Origin: a virus
Lineage: Duplodnaviria; Heunggongvirae; Uroviricota; Caudoviricetes
DNA length: 5,423 nucleotides
IMG/VR virus record: IMGVR_UViG_2802429220_000009
Coordinates: 1-5,423 of that record
Reading direction: 5' to 3' (one strand)
Made by a program: the position numbers and the translations under genes. The first letter of the stretch is position 1. Each line of letters starts with the position of its first letter. Positions 1 to 5,423 of the stretch are shown here, piece after piece. The notes under the pieces are model-generated. The model saw nothing but the letters and a program-made list of their open reading frames with translations, was not told the DNA's origin and did no database searches.

Positions 1-480
1 CTGGGCTTTTTCCATCCAGAGCTGCATGTAGCAAAGGAGGATGATTTCCTCGGCTGTGAATTGTGGCTGAATCTGCGGCTGCTGTTCGGTTGGTGCTGTT
101 TTTCCCTGGCTGAAATAGCAGTCTTCCAGTTTTTCGAATACTTCCCACGCCTGATCGGTTTCGAGCATTTTTGCGTGACGGGCTGCGCCGCGTTCTGTCC
201 AGAGTATGAGCGAGCGGGCTTTCGGGGAAATTTGTAACCCTCTTAAAGATGGTTGCAAATTTTGTGAGTTACTTAAAGTAACCCGCAAATTTTTCAACTC
301 ATCACCAACAACCTTGAAAAAGTGTTTACCCTCAACAAAACGCTCGGAATTACGGGTGTAATTTACTTTGATGTTGTTGATCTCGGTACAGTAAAGCTGT
401 GCCAGTAACTCGGTAGTGATAACGGGAATTTGGTTGTGTGTAATTGGGGAAAGAGTTTCGACAGAAATCTGAGTGGCCAT
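1..480 (-). CDS. ORF6N-domain phage antirepressor-like protein, 5' part (160 codons; C-terminus lies beyond the window)
   Basis: Minus-strand ATG at 480..478 preceded by GGAG about 8 nt upstream; open frame with no stop through position 1, absent from the track because it runs off the window. Translation MATQISVETLSPITHNQIPVITTELLAQLYCTEINNIKVNYTRNSERFVEGKHFFKVVGDELKNL...SLILWTERGAARHAKMLETDQAWEVFEKLEDCYF matches my recollection of the ORF6N N-terminal domain of phage antirepressors (family assignment from memory). Confidence 0.65.
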   Translation of the reverse strand, partial: MATQISVETLSPITHNQIPVITTELLAQLYCTEINNIKVNYTRNSERFVEGKHFFKVVGDELKNLRVTLSNSQNLQPSLRGLQISPKARSLILWTERGAARHAKMLETDQAWEVFEKLEDCYFSQGKTAPTEQQPQIQPQFTAEEIILLCYMQLWMEKAQ

Positions 481-637
481 AACGATAACTCCGTACATTT
501 GGACATTATCGCCACCGTCAGGTGCTAATCATCGTGGTGGCGAACTGTGCGGGGTTAGCACTACCGGGTACGGAAACCGGCGAGCCTTTCGGCTCCCCCA
601 CACAGCCCGCCATAAATCGCGAATGTGACTGTGCAAA

Positions 638-672
638 CGATATGAAAAAAGACGCGGGCGCGTCTCATATCG
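638..672 (-). terminator. Intrinsic terminator on the minus strand (GC hairpin plus U6), nested in an outer inverted repeat CGATATG/CATATCG
   Basis: Minus-strand RNA reads CGAUAUG-A-GACGCGCCCGCGUC-UUUUUU-CAUAUCG: a 5-bp GC-rich stem GACGC/GCGUC with a 4-nt loop, immediately followed by six U (plus-strand A6 at 645-650). Outer arms 638-644 and 666-672 are exact reverse complements. Confidence 0.5.
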
Positions 673-721
673 CTCCGTAAACATCCGGGGTGCTAATCCC
701 GACGCCAGATTTTGCTGGCGT
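645..721 (-). ncRNA. Candidate ~75-nt structured small transcript or leader (promoter to intrinsic terminator); function unknown
   Basis: Bounded by the minus-strand promoter at 728-757 and the terminator at 638-672. Predicted 5' hairpin CGCCAG-CAAAAU-CUGGCG (plus 703-720), an internal GGG/CCC stem, and the 3' terminator hairpin. No plausible ORF: the only ATG-initiated frame reads through the terminator. Confidence 0.3.
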
Positions 722-727
722 GCGAAG

Positions 728-757
728 AATATAATCCCGGATACGTGACGTTGTCAA
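728..757 (-). promoter_or_regulatory. Sigma70-like promoter on the minus strand (-35 TTGACA, 18-bp spacer, -10 TATATT)
   Basis: Reverse complement of 752-757 is a perfect TTGACA; reverse complement of 728-733 is TATATT (5 of 6 to TATAAT). Predicted start near 720, pointing at the terminator at 638-672 and the antirepressor-like gene beyond. A plus-strand TATAAT (730-735) overlaps it. Confidence 0.35.
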
Positions 758-767
758 ACTGATGGCA

Positions 768-796
768 TTGCAGATCCCTACACAATGTAATACTAT
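768..796 (+). promoter_or_regulatory. Putative promoter of the toxin-antitoxin operon (-35 TTGCAG, 17-bp spacer, -10 TACTAT), flanked by short inverted-repeat arms
   Basis: TTGCAG at 768-773 and TACTAT at 791-796 with a 17-bp spacer, about 30 nt upstream of the toxin ATG at 825. Inverted-repeat arms AATGTA (784-789) and TACATT (803-808) bracket the -10, as expected for an autoregulated TA operator. Confidence 0.4.
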
Positions 797-824
797 GTGT
801 TATACATTAATAACGGAACAAAAA

Positions 825-1196
825 ATGCGCATTTTTAAAAACGCCTGGTTTGAGCGATTTGCACGCAAAAACAAAATATCCGACCAGTCACTGCGCGAAA
901 TTGTTAAACAGGCTGATAACGGGCTTATCTCAGCAAACCTGGGTAACGGCGTTATCAAGCAACGTCTGCCACGAGTCGGTGGCGGCAAATCTGGCGGTTA
1001 TCGCACAATCATTTTCTATCGCGTCGGCACAAGGGCCTTTTTCGTATATGCATACGCAAAAAATGAACGTGAAAATATAACCGCTACTGAGGAAAGTGCA
1101 TTTCGGAAGGCGGCTCCTCACGTACTCAATCTAACAGATGAACAACTGGCACAACTGATTCTACAGGGTCAGTTTACGGAGGTACCCAATGAGTAA
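825..1196 (+). CDS. Type II toxin, RelE/ParE-superfamily (HigB-like, toxin-first operon), 123 aa
   Basis: Track ORF 762..1196 trimmed to the internal ATG at 825 (MRIFKNAWFERF...), because the predicted -10 lies inside the 5' extension. Contains the motif RVGGGKSGGYRTIIFYRVG, which I recall as typical of RelE/ParE-like toxins paired with HTH antitoxins. The stop TAA 1194-1196 overlaps the next gene's start in ATGAGTAA. Confidence 0.8.
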   Translation: MRIFKNAWFERFARKNKISDQSLREIVKQADNGLISANLGNGVIKQRLPRVGGGKSGGYRTIIFYRVGTRAFFVYAYAKNERENITATEESAFRKAAPHVLNLTDEQLAQLILQGQFTEVPNE

Positions 1197-1506
1197 AAAT
1201 TACCGCAGTGATGCGCTTGCATCCGTACATGAAATGATGGAATCGCTTCATGATATCGGCGCAGTAACGAAACAGACTATGCGAGAATTCGATGAAACTT
1301 GTCTCCAGCCAGCGCCGGTAATGTCTCCGGAAAGGATCCGTGCACTGCGCGAACGAGAGCATCTGTCTCAACCTGTTTTTGCCAGATACCTCAACGTCAG
1401 TAAAAACCTGATATCAGACTGGGAACGTGGTGTAAAACGGCCGGGAGGTGCCGCTCTTCGCCTTCTTTCAGTCGTAGAGAAAAACGGGATACAGGTAATA
1501 TCATGA
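1189..1506 (+). CDS. HTH (XRE-type) DNA-binding antitoxin of the type II TA pair, 105 aa
   Basis: ATG at 1189 with GGAGG 5 nt upstream; 8-nt overlap with the toxin gene. Helix-turn-helix signature in the C-terminal half (SQPVFARYLNVSKNLISDWERGVKRPGGAALRLL). Size and toxin-first order fit a HigA-like antitoxin. Confidence 0.85.
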   Translation: MSKNYRSDALASVHEMMESLHDIGAVTKQTMREFDETCLQPAPVMSPERIRALREREHLSQPVFARYLNVSKNLISDWERGVKRPGGAALRLLSVVEKNGIQVIS

Positions 1507-1522
1507 TACTCCAATACAACAA

Positions 1523-1540
1523 AACCCGCCGAAGCGGGTT
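1523..1540. terminator. Intrinsic terminator between the convergent TA operon and hok; U-tract on the minus strand (hok mRNA 3' end), weaker for the plus strand
   Basis: Stem AACCCGC/GCGGGTT with a 4-nt loop. On the minus strand the loop is the stable tetraloop UUCG and the stem is followed by UUUUGUUGUAUU; on the plus strand the loop is CGAA and no U-tract follows. Confidence 0.55.
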
Positions 1541-1608
1541 AAGTGCGGGTGCGTTGAGGATGCCTGACACATCAGAGGTGGCGAGGGATTTCTCCCTCGC
1601 CTGGTCTC

Positions 1609-1764
1609 TTACTCCTCAGGTTCGTAAGCTGTGAAGACAGTGACCTCCGTCTGGCCGGTTCGGATTCGTACCTCGCAGAGGTCTTTCCTCGTTACCAGTG
1701 CCGTCACAATGACGGTAATACAGATGACGATCAGGGCGACTAACATCGCCTTTTGCTGCTTCAT
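1609..1764 (-). CDS. hok: Hok/Gef-family type I membrane toxin, 51 aa
   Basis: Internal ATG of track ORF 1609..1821 at 1764..1762 with SD AAGGAGA 7 nt upstream. Product MKQQKAMLVALIVICITVIVTALVTRKDLCEVRIRTGQTEVTVFTAYEPEE is near-identical to E. coli HokD/HokC as I recall them (single transmembrane helix, conserved Cys). Confidence 0.9.
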   Translation of the reverse strand: MKQQKAMLVALIVICITVIVTALVTRKDLCEVRIRTGQTEVTVFTAYEPEE

Positions 1765-1821
1765 AGCCTGCTTCTCCTTGCCTTTCGGCGCGTAAGAGGC
1801 TAACCTACATGTGTCTAGCAT
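1609..1821 (-). CDS. mok: Mok-like in-frame N-terminally extended reading frame (70 aa) coupling hok translation
   Basis: ATG at 1821..1819 in frame with hok, adding MLDTCRLASYAPKGKEKQA; this resembles the MokC N-terminus as I recall it (MLNTCR...KEKRAMKQ). GAGG lies 8 nt upstream. Confidence 0.55.
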   Translation of the reverse strand: MLDTCRLASYAPKGKEKQAMKQQKAMLVALIVICITVIVTALVTRKDLCEVRIRTGQTEVTVFTAYEPEE

Positions 1822-1980
1822 AAAATTGGCCTCAGATTAATGTTAGGCGTCTTGCAGGACGCGTAATGTTAACTGGGGCTTTTCTCTGTCTGCCTTACGG
1901 TGGCATGCCCGAGGCAGACAGCCTCAAGCACCCGCAGCAATTCTACTTAACTCTCGCTTTACCGCAAACCGTTTTTACCC

Positions 1981-2000
1981 GATATGGGAATTCCCATATC
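1981..2000. repeat. Perfect 20-bp palindrome GATATGGGAATTCCCATATC (EcoRI core) between the small-peptide ORFs and the hok leader
   Basis: Positions 1981-1990 and 1991-2000 are exact reverse complements. No U-tract follows on either strand, so it is more likely an operator or RNA structure than a terminator. The flanking bases extend the arms to CGATATG/CATATCG, the same arms as the 638-672 element. Confidence 0.6.
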
Positions 2001-2009
2001 GTAATGAAT

Positions 2010-2114
2010 TCAGTTCCCTAGTCGATCCATCAAAAACACAACCAGGCAGTAAACGCCCACAACAGCAATAACAGCCAGCGCACCTTCCATTGCCAGTGAT
2101 ATATCATCCGACAT
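2010..2114 (-). CDS. Small hydrophobic peptide, 34 aa (predicted single transmembrane helix); function unknown
   Basis: ATG at 2114..2112 with a strong SD AAGGAGGG 4-5 nt upstream; stop TGA at 2012..2010. Product MSDDISLAMEGALAVIAVVGVYCLVVFLMDRLGN. Below the length cutoff of the supplied track. Confidence 0.45.
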   Translation of the reverse strand: MSDDISLAMEGALAVIAVVGVYCLVVFLMDRLGN

Positions 2115-2149
2115 ATTCCCTCCTTTGGTGTTAATCCCGGCGAACGTTT

Positions 2150-2233
2150 TTACCCCCACCGACAAATAACATATACTAAAAAAGCGATAGCCATAGCAAC
2201 GCCTGTAATTGCAAATGCTTCAGGCCAGTTCAT
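2150..2233 (-). CDS. Small hydrophobic peptide, 27 aa (predicted single transmembrane helix); translationally coupled to the upstream gene
   Basis: ATG at 2233..2231 overlaps the stop of the 194-aa gene in ATGA; SD AGGAGG 8 nt upstream. Product MNWPEAFAITGVAMAIAFLVYVICRWG, stop TAA at 2152..2150. Confidence 0.45.
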   Translation of the reverse strand: MNWPEAFAITGVAMAIAFLVYVICRWG

Positions 2234-2814
2234 TGGCGCACCTCCTGCGGCGGTTCTGGTAGCGGCATCCAGTCGGTTACATTGCGGCTCTGTGTTTCGA
2301 AAAATTCATCACCATCACGGACTACATCAAAAAACTCACCGTCTCGATATTGCGCATAAAGAACGAATGCGCCATCACATAAAATAATTACGTGCTGACC
2401 GTCATCCGGCATTCGCTCACTACAGCTTATCCAACCATCCAGAGTTACCGGATGGTTGGTTGACGTTTCCGAGATTTCCCGAAAATTATTGGTTGACGAA
2501 CCCTTCTTTTCCCGAAAGTTTCCAGCCTGAAGCATGGCGGCGCTGTCTGGCGGGGCAGCATATAGCGGCACGTATATTTCCGGTTCCTTATCAGCACCGG
2601 GTTGCTCTTCCAGTGAGAATGTCTTTCCGGTAAATCGATTCATATAAAGCACGGGCTCTGCTTCCAGCGAAGCCTGAGCAACAAGGGCCAGTGCTAAATC
2701 CAACTCAATTGCCTCGAGAGAATTTTTGAATGCTGTCTGTTTTACTGCAAATTTCATCGCCTTTACATTTTCACTAACATGACTGATTAACTGCTCTTTT
2801 GTAAAAGTGGTCAT
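2230..2814 (-). CDS. Hypothetical prophage protein with a DUF551-like C-terminal domain, 194 aa
   Basis: Track ORF 2230..2943 trimmed to the ATG at 2814 (MTTFTKEQ...), which has SD AAGGAG 7 nt upstream; the longer frame would overlap the preceding gene. C-terminus WISCSERMPDDGQHVIILCDGAFVLYAQYRDGEFFDVVRDG...VTDWMPLPEPP fits my recollection of DUF551. Confidence 0.8.
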   Translation of the reverse strand: MTTFTKEQLISHVSENVKAMKFAVKQTAFKNSLEAIELDLALALVAQASLEAEPVLYMNRFTGKTFSLEEQPGADKEPEIYVPLYAAPPDSAAMLQAGNFREKKGSSTNNFREISETSTNHPVTLDGWISCSERMPDDGQHVIILCDGAFVLYAQYRDGEFFDVVRDGDEFFETQSRNVTDWMPLPEPPQEVRQ

Positions 2815-2870
2815 CTCATTCTCCTTTGATGCGAATGCCAGCGACAATTGAAGCCTGATAGCTAATTCAC

Positions 2871-3263
2871 TCACAGTACCGCCTCCTGAAAATTCCCCTG
2901 ATAGAAAGCCAGCACACGCTGCATAACTTCGCTCTGGCGGCACTCACGACAAATTATGTTCTGCCGTCTGTTGTAACGACGTATTTCTCCGTCAGGTAAC
3001 TTTCGAATCAGTGTCGGGTCAGCAGCCTTCTCCGGTGTCTTACGCCATACGCGATACGCCTGCTCTGATGGAAATACCCCGCAATCAGAGAGCCAGACAT
3101 CACCACTGGCCGCAAGCGCACCAGATAAACGACGAATAGCGGTCTTACTGACACCCGTTTTATCTGCCAGTTGTCGAAAAGTTTCTCGTCCGCTCAGGCG
3201 CACGAATTCCACAATGCGCGCCTTCACTTCTTCCCGCTCTTCTGGTGTAAATACTTTTGCCAT
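2871..3263 (-). CDS. Hypothetical HTH-containing protein, 130 aa
   Basis: ATG at 3263 (MAKVFTPEER...) with SD GGAGG 5 nt upstream; the track's TTG start at 3278 is rejected. HTH-like segment ETFRQLADKTGVSKTAIRRLSGAL; a CxxC pair (CRECRQ) near the C-terminus. No family recognised. Confidence 0.7.
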   Translation of the reverse strand: MAKVFTPEEREEVKARIVEFVRLSGRETFRQLADKTGVSKTAIRRLSGALAASGDVWLSDCGVFPSEQAYRVWRKTPEKAADPTLIRKLPDGEIRRYNRRQNIICRECRQSEVMQRVLAFYQGNFQEAVL

Positions 3264-3278
3264 AAGCGCCTCCGGCAA

Positions 3279-4049
3279 TCACTTTTCCGATACAACACGG
3301 CGGGAAGAATCAGTAATCTGTCGAACAATATCCCGGTGCTTGTTCAGCTCCCGCAGCGCGGCACAGACACGCTCCCACTTCTGGACCTGTTTTTGGGCGC
3401 GACGAAGTTCTCGACTGGCAGCATGCAGCGATGGAAGCATCACCAAACTGGCAGATTTTTCGGTGAATGATGGAACTTCTCGGATAAACTCATCTGTACT
3501 GGCCTTTGCCGTGCTCTCTGATGCCAACGGAAAACGATTCATTTCATCGCCTGCCGCGCTGTTTTCTGCGTCATGGTGTGATTGCTTATTCTGCGATGAT
3601 AAAGCGCTCAAATCGCCGTTTTCGACATCAGGCATTTTGTAACGGAATTTTCCGTTGCTGATCTCGCGTACCAGGCGTCTCGTTGCTGTTACCACCGCCA
3701 ACGTGGAAGCAACCTTACGAGTGCTGACACCGAACTTCCCCGCAAGTTCCTCACACGTTTTAGCCCCATCCTGACCGATAAACTCAATCATCATGTCTGC
3801 GGTAACTTTTGGAGCGACCTCTTCGGTTACCACATCCGGCGCTTCAGGTTGTAGTGCCTGCCCTTCGGTTACCCCGGCTTCACCTTCGACAGCCAGAAAC
3901 CAGGTGTGACCCGTTTTATCAACAACGCCATTTTTTTTGAGCTCCCACAGTTCGTTGAGAACTTCTTCACGGCTGATATCAAGCCGCGCCGCCAGTTCAA
4001 CAGAATTGGCTTTTCCCATCGCTTTCAGTGCATGCAGTACGGTTTCCAT
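3279..4049 (-). CDS. Hypothetical protein with two tandem helix-turn-helix-like segments, 256 aa
   Basis: ATG at 4049, 25 nt after the DnaC-like stop, GAGG upstream. Two HTH-like segments (NSVELAARLDISREEVLNELWELKKNGVV and KTCEELAGKFGVSTRKVASTLAVV) followed by a charged, probably helical C-terminus. No catalytic motif recognised. Confidence 0.75.
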   Translation of the reverse strand: METVLHALKAMGKANSVELAARLDISREEVLNELWELKKNGVVDKTGHTWFLAVEGEAGVTEGQALQPEAPDVVTEEVAPKVTADMMIEFIGQDGAKTCEELAGKFGVSTRKVASTLAVVTATRRLVREISNGKFRYKMPDVENGDLSALSSQNKQSHHDAENSAAGDEMNRFPLASESTAKASTDEFIREVPSFTEKSASLVMLPSLHAASRELRRAQKQVQKWERVCAALRELNKHRDIVRQITDSSRRVVSEK

Positions 4050-4074
4050 CGAAAATTTACCTCGTCAAAAATTC

Positions 4075-4815
4075 TCACATACCCTGACGCCCAACGTTTG
4101 ATCGCCAGCTCTCCCAGTTAAAATTCACCCAACGACCACCGTTCATGGTCATACGGTCCATCACCCGCTCGCCGAGGAGTGTGCTCATCGCTGCGTGATT
4201 CAGGTTCGTCAGCATCCCGACACTGCGCAGTGATGCCGTCCGGCGGTCAACAATCTGGTGCAGTACCACCTGCTCGTTTTTCGTCTCACGCTGGATGCCA
4301 ATTTCGTCAAGAACCAGGAGGTCCACTTCGCACAGTTCACGCAAAAATTTTTCCCCTGACAGTCCGTCGTCATAGCTGGCATGTAACGCGCTCATCACAT
4401 CCGCCACGGTGACCACTATCACGGATTTACCGGCATTCAGCAGACGATTACCCACAGCCGCCGCCAGATGATTTTTTCCGGTTCCCGGATTCCCGCTGAA
4501 CACGAAGTTTGTATAACCGGTCATCAATTCATCGGCAATGGATTTCGCCTGGCTCAGAGCATGGCGCTGACCGTCGTTCTGCACCCGGTAGTTCCCGAAT
4601 GAGCACTTCCTGTGAAGCGGCTGGATGCCCGCACGGTTCAGGATTTTTTCAACCCGCGCCTGATGATTCAGGCGGTTAATTTCCTCGCTGCGCTTACGGC
4701 CCTCAGCCAGTTGCCATTCCCGCCATTCGTCGGTCGTCCGGAACGGTGCTGCCACGTGCGGTGGTGCCAGACGGCGCACCCGTTCAAGAATCCCTCCTGT
4801 CGAAATGTTTTTCAT
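4075..4815 (-). CDS. DnaC-like replicative helicase loader (phage P-analog, AAA+ ATPase), 246 aa
   Basis: Strong resemblance to E. coli DnaC as I recall it: MKN... N-terminus, CSFGNYRV, Walker A GNPGTGKNHLAAAVG, Walker B LLVLDEIG, then GMLTNLN and LGERVMDRM. SD GGGGG upstream of the ATG at 4815. Confidence 0.92.
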   Translation of the reverse strand: MKNISTGGILERVRRLAPPHVAAPFRTTDEWREWQLAEGRKRSEEINRLNHQARVEKILNRAGIQPLHRKCSFGNYRVQNDGQRHALSQAKSIADELMTGYTNFVFSGNPGTGKNHLAAAVGNRLLNAGKSVIVVTVADVMSALHASYDDGLSGEKFLRELCEVDLLVLDEIGIQRETKNEQVVLHQIVDRRTASLRSVGMLTNLNHAAMSTLLGERVMDRMTMNGGRWVNFNWESWRSNVGRQGM

Positions 4816-4821
4816 GGCTGA

Positions 4822-5423
4822 TTACCCCCTGAAACCCGGCGGAATTTCGGTGTCCGGTTCAGAAATGTGATTCACGCAACGCAGGCTGACTGCGCCAGCC
4901 TTCGGCAGCGACCACGGATTTTCGAAATTCCTGTTCGGGCCAAAAAACGTCGATGCCTGCTGAACAAATTCAGTTCCCGCTTTCCCGGTAGCCTCCAGGT
5001 ATCTTGCGTAACGCCTCACGCCATCCAGCACGACATCCGGTGACACCCCTTCGCGTAATCTGGCCCTCCAGGCATTGAACGCGGATTTCTTCGGGTTTGA
5101 CCCTGCCCGATGCGGATATTCACGCCAGACCCGTTCGAACACGTCAGGATAATCAACTCGTCCCGCAGACGGTCCCGGCATCGCCCGGGTTAACCCAATC
5201 GGCTTCCCGCTCATCGCGGAATCGGCTTCAGGCTGCTGCGGTTGGCGTTGTTGCTCCGGTTCGACGATCAGCACCTGCTGCACACAACGCCCGGAATCTG
5301 CTTCCGGTGTCGTGCCAGCTGGTCCTGGACGTTCAGTCAGAACAGGACAAAAATCCCCCCGTGGGTCCGTGGCGATTTTTTCGCCATGGACCAGAAGGGT
5401 TTTATCCCTTTCCTGTTCTTGTT
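4822..5423 (-). CDS. Phage replication-initiation protein (O/DnaT-like partner of the DnaC-like loader), 3' part; N-terminus beyond the window
   Basis: Frame is open from the window edge (5423) to stop TAA at 4824..4822, so the track's GTG start at 5283 is internal. Sits 6 nt upstream of the DnaC-like gene, the usual initiator-loader arrangement. Product assignment rests on position and a Gln/Pro-rich linker, not a recognised motif. Confidence 0.65.
   Translation of the reverse strand, partial: QEQERDKTLLVHGEKIATDPRGDFCPVLTERPGPAGTTPEADSGRCVQQVLIVEPEQQRQPQQPEADSAMSGKPIGLTRAMPGPSAGRVDYPDVFERVWREYPHRAGSNPKKSAFNAWRARLREGVSPDVVLDGVRRYARYLEATGKAGTEFVQQASTFFGPNRNFENPWSLPKAGAVSLRCVNHISEPDTEIPPGFRG

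Follow-up and report, generated by a model that had tools for sequence, protein, structure and literature searches.

What do the two small overlapping genes at positions 825-1506 of IMG/VR virus record IMGVR_UViG_2802429220_000009 encode, and what do they do for the prophage that carries them? We examined this question in a stretch of 5,423 nucleotides of tailed-phage (Caudoviricetes) DNA, positions 1 to 5,423 of that record and hereafter the window, which matches part of a lambdoid prophage of Escherichia coli HCP4S3_I4 at 100% identity. An initial annotation, made from the sequence alone, had described the locus as a toxin-first type II toxin-antitoxin (TA) pair of HigBA-like arrangement. 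We conclude, with a probability of roughly 0.85, that it is an intact HigB2/HigA2-family type II TA operon, which the prophage bears in its nin region as an accessory “moron”.

The toxin gene lies on the plus strand at 825..1196, from an ATG at 825 to a TAA at 1194-1196, and comprises 123 codons, the protein beginning with MRIFKNAWFERF. The antitoxin gene follows on the same strand at 1189..1506, from an ATG at 1189 to a TGA at 1506, with 105 codons. As initially described, the two genes overlap by 8 nt, sharing the sequence ATGAGTAA at 1189-1196 (+), which combines the antitoxin start with the toxin stop. A strong Shine-Dalgarno sequence for the antitoxin, GGAGG, can be recognized at 1178..1182 (+), within the toxin gene and 6 nt 5' of the antitoxin ATG, whereas the toxin’s own ribosome-binding site is merely GGA at 815-817. 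This difference would be expected to shift the translation ratio in favour of the antitoxin. An in-frame ATG at 762 yields a longer, 144-aa version of the toxin open reading frame (ORF), but this start is almost certainly wrong, because the relatives all begin at MRIFKNAWF and because the extension would run through the operator and promoter described below. Some database entries use the 762 start, and such miscalled starts may feed reports of PF06296 toxins with “extended disordered N-termini”.

A profile search assigned the toxin to Pfam PF06296 (“RelE”, formerly DUF1044), the TA family of HigB2, with E = 1.7e-46 and 157.8 bits against a cut-off of 27, the match spanning profile positions 1-120 of 120. 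At E <= 0.1, Pfam gave no match to PF05015 (Rts1-type HigB), PF09907 (HigB) or PF05016 (ParE and K-12 RelE). The HigBA-like label therefore holds in the sense of the HigB2/HigA2 lineage, a PF06296 toxin with an XRE-type helix-turn-helix (HTH) partner, and not in the sense of the Rts1 HigB (PF05015) or ParE (PF05016) lineages. PF06296 was carried by all 120 homologues listed, out of 1928 matches, and the toxin family forms 2257 clusters at 50% identity (E <= 0.001). Among other resources, no NCBIfam model matched the toxin, the matching PHROG families 5869 and 2104 are of “unknown function”, and RefSeq labels the identical protein “type II toxin-antitoxin system RelE/ParE family toxin” (WP_077168034.1).

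The only solved relatives of the toxin found by sequence are chains of Vibrio cholerae HigB-2 (VcHigB2), with E = 0.003 for the single sequence and 1.4e-4 for the family profile. The VcHigB2 sequence, in the form that we take to be correct, scores 34.5 bits in PF06296, above the cut-off, and its core and numbering agree with the alignments and with the published descriptions. An AlphaFold2 model of the toxin, built from 34 homologues, reached moderate confidence (predicted local distance difference test score, pLDDT, 77; predicted template-modelling score 0.73) and shows a strand, two helices, three strands, two helices and a final strand, with a disordered loop at residues 53-57 (pLDDT < 50). 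When this model was searched against the PDB with Foldseek, the top ten matches were all VcHigB2 chains (probability 1.0, template-modelling score 0.5-0.65), and the next, far behind, were the mRNases HigB1, YafQ and YoeB. The Pfam, PDB and RefSeq matches thus describe a predicted mRNA interferase of RelE fold in the HigB2 family. Consistently, a published survey placed HigB-2 (Q9KMA6) in PF06296 and gave the family as one of ribosome-dependent mRNA degradation with toxin-antitoxin gene order (PMC11980606).

The initial annotation held that the catalytic class of the toxin could not be read from sequence. This proved too cautious. In VcHigB2, the active site was defined by structure as K49, R51, R64, Y82 and K84, and alanine substitution of R51, R64, Y82 or K84 strongly lowered activity (PMC5416850; PMC10098735). 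The phmmer alignment pairs these five residues with K45, R47, R60, Y77 and K79 of the window toxin, and among 111 diverse relatives K45 is kept in 110, R47 in 107, R60 in 111 and K79 in 108; at position 77, where the window toxin has Tyr, 97 have Phe and 12 have Tyr. The GGGKSGGYR motif, which the initial annotation had singled out, is present at toxin residues 52-60 (978..1004, +) and corresponds to a Gly/Lys-rich beta2-beta3 loop ending in the predicted catalytic R60. It aligns with VcHigB2 KGKGKRGGSR, that is, with the disordered loop A53-S63 plus Arg64. In VcHigB2, this loop is disordered and positively charged, has been proposed to contact 16S rRNA and is followed by the catalytic Arg64. 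Because the toxin keeps the RelE-like active site known from mutations of VcHigB2, which points to an mRNA endonuclease, the catalytic class is largely readable after all, and with reasonable confidence we predict RelE-like, ribosome-dependent cleavage of mRNA instead of ParE-type poisoning of gyrase.

The partner gene encodes a HigA2/YiaG-like antitoxin. It consists of a conserved N-terminal segment (residues 1-44) and a C-terminal XRE HTH (residues 45-99, nt 1321-1485), in which Pfam recognizes HTH_3 at residues 50-94 (E = 1e-7). Its best relative in the PDB is VcHigA2, with E = 8e-8 for the single sequence and 9e-10 for the profile, and hhalign, run with the VcHigA2 sequence taken from the supplement of PMC11006873, aligned residues 21-99 with VcHigA2 20-94 at 98% probability, E = 2.7e-13 and 36% identity. 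The two proteins are also of nearly the same length (105 and 104 aa). Among 32 antitoxin sequences, Y5, S7, H14, L20, G24, K28, T30, M31, F34, C38 and L39 are invariant. These residues all fall in the N-terminal 44, whose striking conservation across phyla would fit a specific protein-protein interface. The first ~37 residues of VcHigA2 are disordered; on HigB2 they fold into a helix and a strand, and they are enough for neutralization, while the C-terminal domain dimerizes and binds DNA. By analogy, we infer that the N-terminal segment of the window antitoxin neutralizes the toxin.

General databases say less about this protein: RefSeq labels the identical antitoxin “helix-turn-helix domain-containing protein” (WP_000042397.1), and PADLOC gives generic HTH matches only. 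Two other assignments were considered and rejected. As MqsA, the antitoxin scores 18 bits against 30 for PF15731 and 33.5 against 61.8 for TIGR03830, through its HTH part only, and it has a single cysteine, C38, where MqsA carries a CxxC...CxxC zinc-binding domain. As an orthologue of YiaG, it reaches 25 bits in NF007481 against a cut-off of 110, again below threshold and through the HTH part only.

The two-gene arrangement is widely conserved. A survey restricted to one genome per species recovered 80 loci with a toxin relative (52-67% identity), spanning Gamma-, Beta-, Alpha- and Deltaproteobacteria, Acidobacteriota, Cyanobacteria, Chloroflexota, Spirochaetota and others. In 77 of them, the gene that follows the toxin immediately, and in the same orientation, encodes an antitoxin homologue (49-83% identity, full length in nearly all cases); in the remaining three the contig ends within 40 nt of the toxin stop. 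Together with the PF06296 score and the HTH_3 domain, this constancy of order upholds the description of the locus as a toxin-first type II pair. Among the 77 loci, the genes overlap by 8 nt (ATGnnTAA/TAG) in 26, by 23 nt in 26 and by 4 nt in 8. The ATGnnTAA junction of the window, seen in 26 of 77 loci, is thus one standard junction of the family. In the same comparison, the antitoxin reaches 83% identity across phyla and the toxin 67%; antitoxins are usually expected to be the faster-evolving partner, and here the reverse holds.

The comparison of loci also brought out a candidate operator. In the window this is a 15-bp palindrome, TAATACTATGTGTTA (TAATAC-TAT-GTGTTA), at 788..802. Across the 90 nt 5' of the toxin start in 74 loci, the family consensus is T[A/C]A[C/T]AC-N3-GTGT[G/T]A with T/A-rich flanks, and the core AYRC-N3-GYRT occurs in 61 of the 74, which span many phyla, at a median position of -37; outside this region, its density in these loci is 0.0165 per 90 nt. 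The O104:H4 and O157 alleles carry the operator as a perfect palindrome, TAACACTATGTGTTA, and it is the sole well-conserved stretch between E. coli alleles whose upstream sequences otherwise differ. The repeat search had missed it, owing to the short arms and single mismatch of the window copy; it emerged only when loci were compared. The palindrome overlaps a candidate sigma-70 promoter read from the sequence, TTGCAG-17 nt-TACTAT at 768..796 (+), which agrees with the consensus at 7 of 12 positions; TGTAAT at 786-791 is an alternative -10 candidate. In many relatives, a perfect TATAAT overlaps the left operator half-site. VcHigA2, similarly, binds one inverted repeat extending over the -10 element (PMC11006873). 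Autorepression by the antitoxin through the candidate operator is therefore a prediction that is well supported comparatively.

Of the characterized systems, V. cholerae HigB2/HigA2 (VCA0468/VCA0469; PDB 5JA8, 5JAA, 8A0X) shares the most features with the window pair: a PF06296 toxin in a toxin-first operon, the RelE-like K/R/R/Y/K site and Gly/Lys-rich beta2-beta3 loop of the toxin, an antitoxin of ~104 aa with an N-terminal toxin-binding segment (here by homology) and a C-terminal XRE HTH, and one palindromic operator at the -10 region (a candidate in the window). The two systems differ in several respects. The window toxin exceeds VcHigB2 by 13 aa and has an additional helix and strand at its C-terminus; the operator of the window family is TAAYAC-N3-GTGTTA, whereas that of VcHigA2 is TGTACGC-N5-GCGTACA; the N-terminal antitoxin segment is highly conserved across phyla in the window family; and the V. 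cholerae genes form a superintegron cassette, in contrast to the prophage setting here. ToxP/AntitoxP (CBUA0028/CBUA0027) of the Coxiella burnetii plasmid QpH1 is likewise HigBA2-like, toxin-first and on a mobile replicon, differing in being plasmid-borne, and for this pair toxicity, rescue, translation inhibition and promoter binding have been shown. The toxin family is present on 276 of 72,556 plasmids, including 19 Coxiella plasmid records with a tblastn match to the window toxin (E <= 1e-5), which may be cbuA0028 itself. The relE-yiaG modules, described bioinformatically, combine a PF06296 toxin with a downstream YiaG-like XRE-HTH antitoxin whose N-terminal helices are predicted to contact the toxin (PMC11980606); their toxins are described with extended, disordered N-termini, whereas the window toxin starts at the conserved MRIF. 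Finally, the Proteus vulgaris Rts1 HigB/HigA pair has the same toxin-first order and its toxin is a ribosome-dependent mRNase, but it belongs to PF05015, its topology lacks the C-terminal helix, and its antitoxin binds the toxin in another mode. Computationally, the locus has the features of PF06296/HigBA2 systems and lacks those of Rts1-type HigB, ParE, MqsRA and catalogued defence systems.

If the pair works as its relatives do, a weak promoter overlapping the palindrome at 788-802 would drive a single toxin-first transcript, as the conserved operator suggests, and a dimer of the C-terminal XRE HTH of the antitoxin would bind this palindrome and repress the operon. The antitoxin would be translated from the GGAGG inside the toxin 3' end, across the 8-nt overlap, and this translational coupling together with the stronger ribosome-binding site would probably result in antitoxin excess. 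Its N-terminal ~40 residues would then fold onto the toxin and neutralize it, in keeping with the homology to VcHigA2. Should the labile antitoxin no longer be replenished, free toxin would be predicted from its residues and fold to enter the ribosomal A site and cleave translating mRNA. Cleavage would proceed via K45, R47, R60, Y77 and K79, with the GGGKSGG loop contacting 16S rRNA, and translation and growth would stop.

We next examined how the pair is distributed and how it varies. Of 5426 complete E. coli genomes, 217 (4%) carry it, in two main allele groups: the window type, with at least 99% nucleotide identity and including O104:H4, and a second group at ~84.6% nucleotide identity to the window type, found in O157:H7, O145 and O103. 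Between the groups, the antitoxins are 99% and the toxins 86% identical at the protein level. At the nucleotide level, window 825-1506 compared with the corresponding segment of an O157-type locus (L004, 5001-5682) gives 92.5% identity for the antitoxin and 77% for the toxin, with a sharp rise at the toxin 3' end. Codon differences between the two E. coli alleles are 51 synonymous and 17 non-synonymous in the toxin, and 22 and 1 in the antitoxin. This excess of synonymous differences indicates purifying selection on both genes and, with the Pfam score and the recurrence of the two-gene order, argues that the locus is not a chance pair of ORFs.

Many E. coli copies nevertheless carry a broken toxin beside an intact antitoxin. 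The O104:H4 toxin is interrupted by a -1 frameshift in the A5 run at 867-871 and by another -1 frameshift near codon 95, and it also has F12L at an otherwise invariant residue; this allele is identical in the genomes that matched at 100% (19 matched at at least 99%). Phage PhiR12_3 carries the first of these frameshifts, and strain GE3 has a +1 change in a G4 run; in all three the antitoxin is intact. For the window-type allele, 8 genomes are intact (A5) and 28 frameshifted (A4). The O157-type allele, typed at its G4 run (L004 5095-5098), is intact (G4) in ~114 genomes and frameshifted (G5) in 51; the G4/G5 50-mer searches seeded on both alleles, and identity bands were used for these counts instead. 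Altogether, 79 of 201 typed E. coli copies (~39%) have a frameshifted toxin, a figure to be read with caution, since outbreak clones are over-sampled and an indel in a homopolymer can stem from faulty assembly. Toxin frameshifts that arise independently beside a retained antitoxin are the way in which a gene harmful by itself typically decays. In the protein collection, the exact window toxin was found on 272 contigs, truncated toxins of 68, 85 and 104 aa on 174, 226 and 118 contigs, respectively, and the exact antitoxin on at least 1000. Among 50,697 deposited phage genomes, a close copy was found in a single one, PhiR12_3 (induced from ECOR13), whose toxin is the frameshifted one described above. 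This scarcity has two possible explanations: most host prophages may be cryptic or go uninduced, or isolates may under-represent phages whose toxin is intact.

Several points weigh against reading the locus as a functional HigB2/HigA2 operon. The toxin is ~20-25% identical to VcHigB2, and the sequence match is limited to the central 55 residues. Most family members have Phe in place of the catalytic Tyr82, and the chemistry may therefore differ in detail. The promoter scan, at its threshold, reported no plus-strand promoter for the TA operon; the promoter is weak by consensus, and its assignment is tentative for this reason. No defence-system model of PADLOC-DB 2.0 matches the toxin. With ~39% of typed copies frameshifted, the toxin is clearly dispensable. 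Finally, literature searches using the protein accessions and HigB in lambdoid or O157 prophages found no study of the E. coli pair. One paper on a TA system of O157 cryptic prophages was considered as a match and rejected, as it concerns the different system paaR2-paaA2-parE2.

The location in a prophage and the convergent hok gene, both part of the initial annotation, are confirmed. In HCP4S3_I4 the order is cI-like, cro, cII, replication genes (O-like and DnaC-like), DUF1627, DUF977 (Ren-like), DUF551 and hokD, then the TA pair on the opposite strand, followed by two antirepressor genes, DUF1364, rusA, ninH, Q and the lysis and terminase genes. The TA operon thus lies in the nin region, antisense to the PR early-right operon and convergent with hok/sok. 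The same antisense slot in the nin region is occupied in different lambdoid prophages, those of O157:H7, strain GE3 and SLK172, and hokD stands beside the pair in O157:H7 and GE3.

On the hok side lies a complete type I TA locus, hok/sok, on the minus strand, in which hokD occupies 1609-1764 and runs towards the type II pair; sok was found at 1759-1933 (-) with 115 bits in Rfam, and a mok-like longer ORF of this minus-strand locus reaches 1821. The two TA types are placed tail to tail and have one hairpin in common, a GC-rich stem at 1523..1540 between the antitoxin and hok, with a T-run on the minus strand only. For the hok transcript, this hairpin is a good terminator. On the plus strand there is no U-tract, so TA transcripts may read through into hok, and such read-through past the one-sided terminator could act as antisense to hok. 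A second isrK-like match, at 1519-1600 (-), covers this hairpin; at 27.8 bits and E = 0.004 it is below threshold and probably reflects just the common terminator-like stem. In O104:H4 (FDAARGOS_349, 6806-7748) and some other strains, a cassette of ~840 bp separates the antitoxin from hok, at about window position 1541. It carries the gene of a Doc (death-on-curing) family toxin, preceded by a small ORF, and brings the slot to three TA systems. The hairpin sequence AAAACCCGCCGAAGCGGGTT is present on both flanks of the cassette, which suggests cassette exchange by recombination at the terminator.

On the other side, window positions 1-757 hold an immI-like antirepressor control module on the minus strand, divergent from the TA operon. 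It comprises a promoter, TTGACA-18-TATATT at 757..728 (-), with 11 of 12 consensus positions; c4 a1/b1 target sites at 682-734 (-; 46.1 bits, slightly below the gathering score); the Hfq-binding RNA isrK at 645-721 (-; 73.5 bits); the C4 antisense RNA at 533-617 (-; 78 bits); and an antirepressor ORF starting at 480 (-), which RefSeq describes as a P22AR C-terminal domain protein. Control of this divergent promoter by the antitoxin was considered and rejected: the operator is ~30 bp away, and the adjacency of the two is absent in O157-type loci.

What, then, does the pair do for the prophage? The initial annotation had suggested prophage stabilization or abortive infection. By analogy with relatives that stabilize replicons (V. 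cholerae higBA2, A. baumannii higBA2 and Coxiella toxP/antitoxP), its most likely role would be selfish maintenance, or addiction, of the prophage segment. For V. cholerae higBA2, both mRNA cleavage at the ribosomal A site and plasmid stabilization have been shown.

A role in anti-phage defence, through abortive infection or superinfection exclusion, is plausible but unlikely. Infection would deplete or displace the antitoxin, and the mRNase would halt translation before the phage completes its cycle. The pair sits in a prophage accessory hot-spot beside hok/sok, to which a Doc-family TA pair has been added in O104:H4, and RelE-superfamily toxins such as HigB of TAC modules mediate abortive infection, the superfamily having been argued to be defensive (PMC11980606). 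Yet the toxin matches no PADLOC model, the literature examined contains no defence phenotype for PF06296 members, and the functions shown for the family are replicon stabilization and starvation-induced transcription. The frequent loss of the toxin in successful lineages also speaks against strong selection for defence.

A more speculative proposal, which we regard as doubtful, is that the pair is wired into prophage biology, such that induction or heteroimmune infection could cut antitoxin synthesis and release the mRNase. The pair always lies between the replication genes and Q, in antisense orientation to the PR early-right operon, and prophage induction would therefore drive PR transcription head-on into the TA operon. 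If true, this might modulate burst timing or lead to abortive infection.

Less probable still is that the system has decayed or been domesticated, the window toxin being non-toxic and the HTH protein persisting as a regulator or an anti-addiction antitoxin. The homopolymer frameshifts in 79 of 201 typed copies with the antitoxin intact, and the far greater conservation of the antitoxin between the E. coli alleles, would fit this explanation. The window toxin itself, however, is full length and keeps all five active-site positions and every residue that is invariant in the family alignment; substitutions between intact toxin alleles are predominantly synonymous (51 against 17), and the exact protein recurs on 272 contigs. 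We give very little credence to the toxin being a ParE-type DNA-gyrase poison, as its generic RefSeq label and the fold common to both classes might suggest, given that PF05016 is not matched even at E 0.1, the RelE-type Lys/Arg/Tyr/Lys set is kept, the nearest structures are the mRNases HigB2 and then HigB1, YafQ and YoeB, and PF06296 is catalogued under ribosome-dependent mRNA degradation.

As a HigB2/HigA2-family operon, the locus is a known kind of system, already annotated in public genomes, and a 2025 survey described PF_RelE toxins paired with YiaG/HigA2-like antitoxins (PMC11980606). Modest novelty attaches only to the operator consensus across the family and to the high frequency of toxin frameshifts. 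For annotation, the gain is a higB2/higA2-like designation in place of the generic “RelE/ParE toxin” and “HTH domain protein”, and little beyond this. For the biology of E. coli, the pair marks a constant accessory position within the nin region of lambdoid prophages from enterohaemorrhagic and enteroaggregative strains (O157:H7, O145, O103 and O104:H4), and the repeated loss of the toxin with the antitoxin kept may offer a natural data set on TA decay and, perhaps, on anti-addiction.

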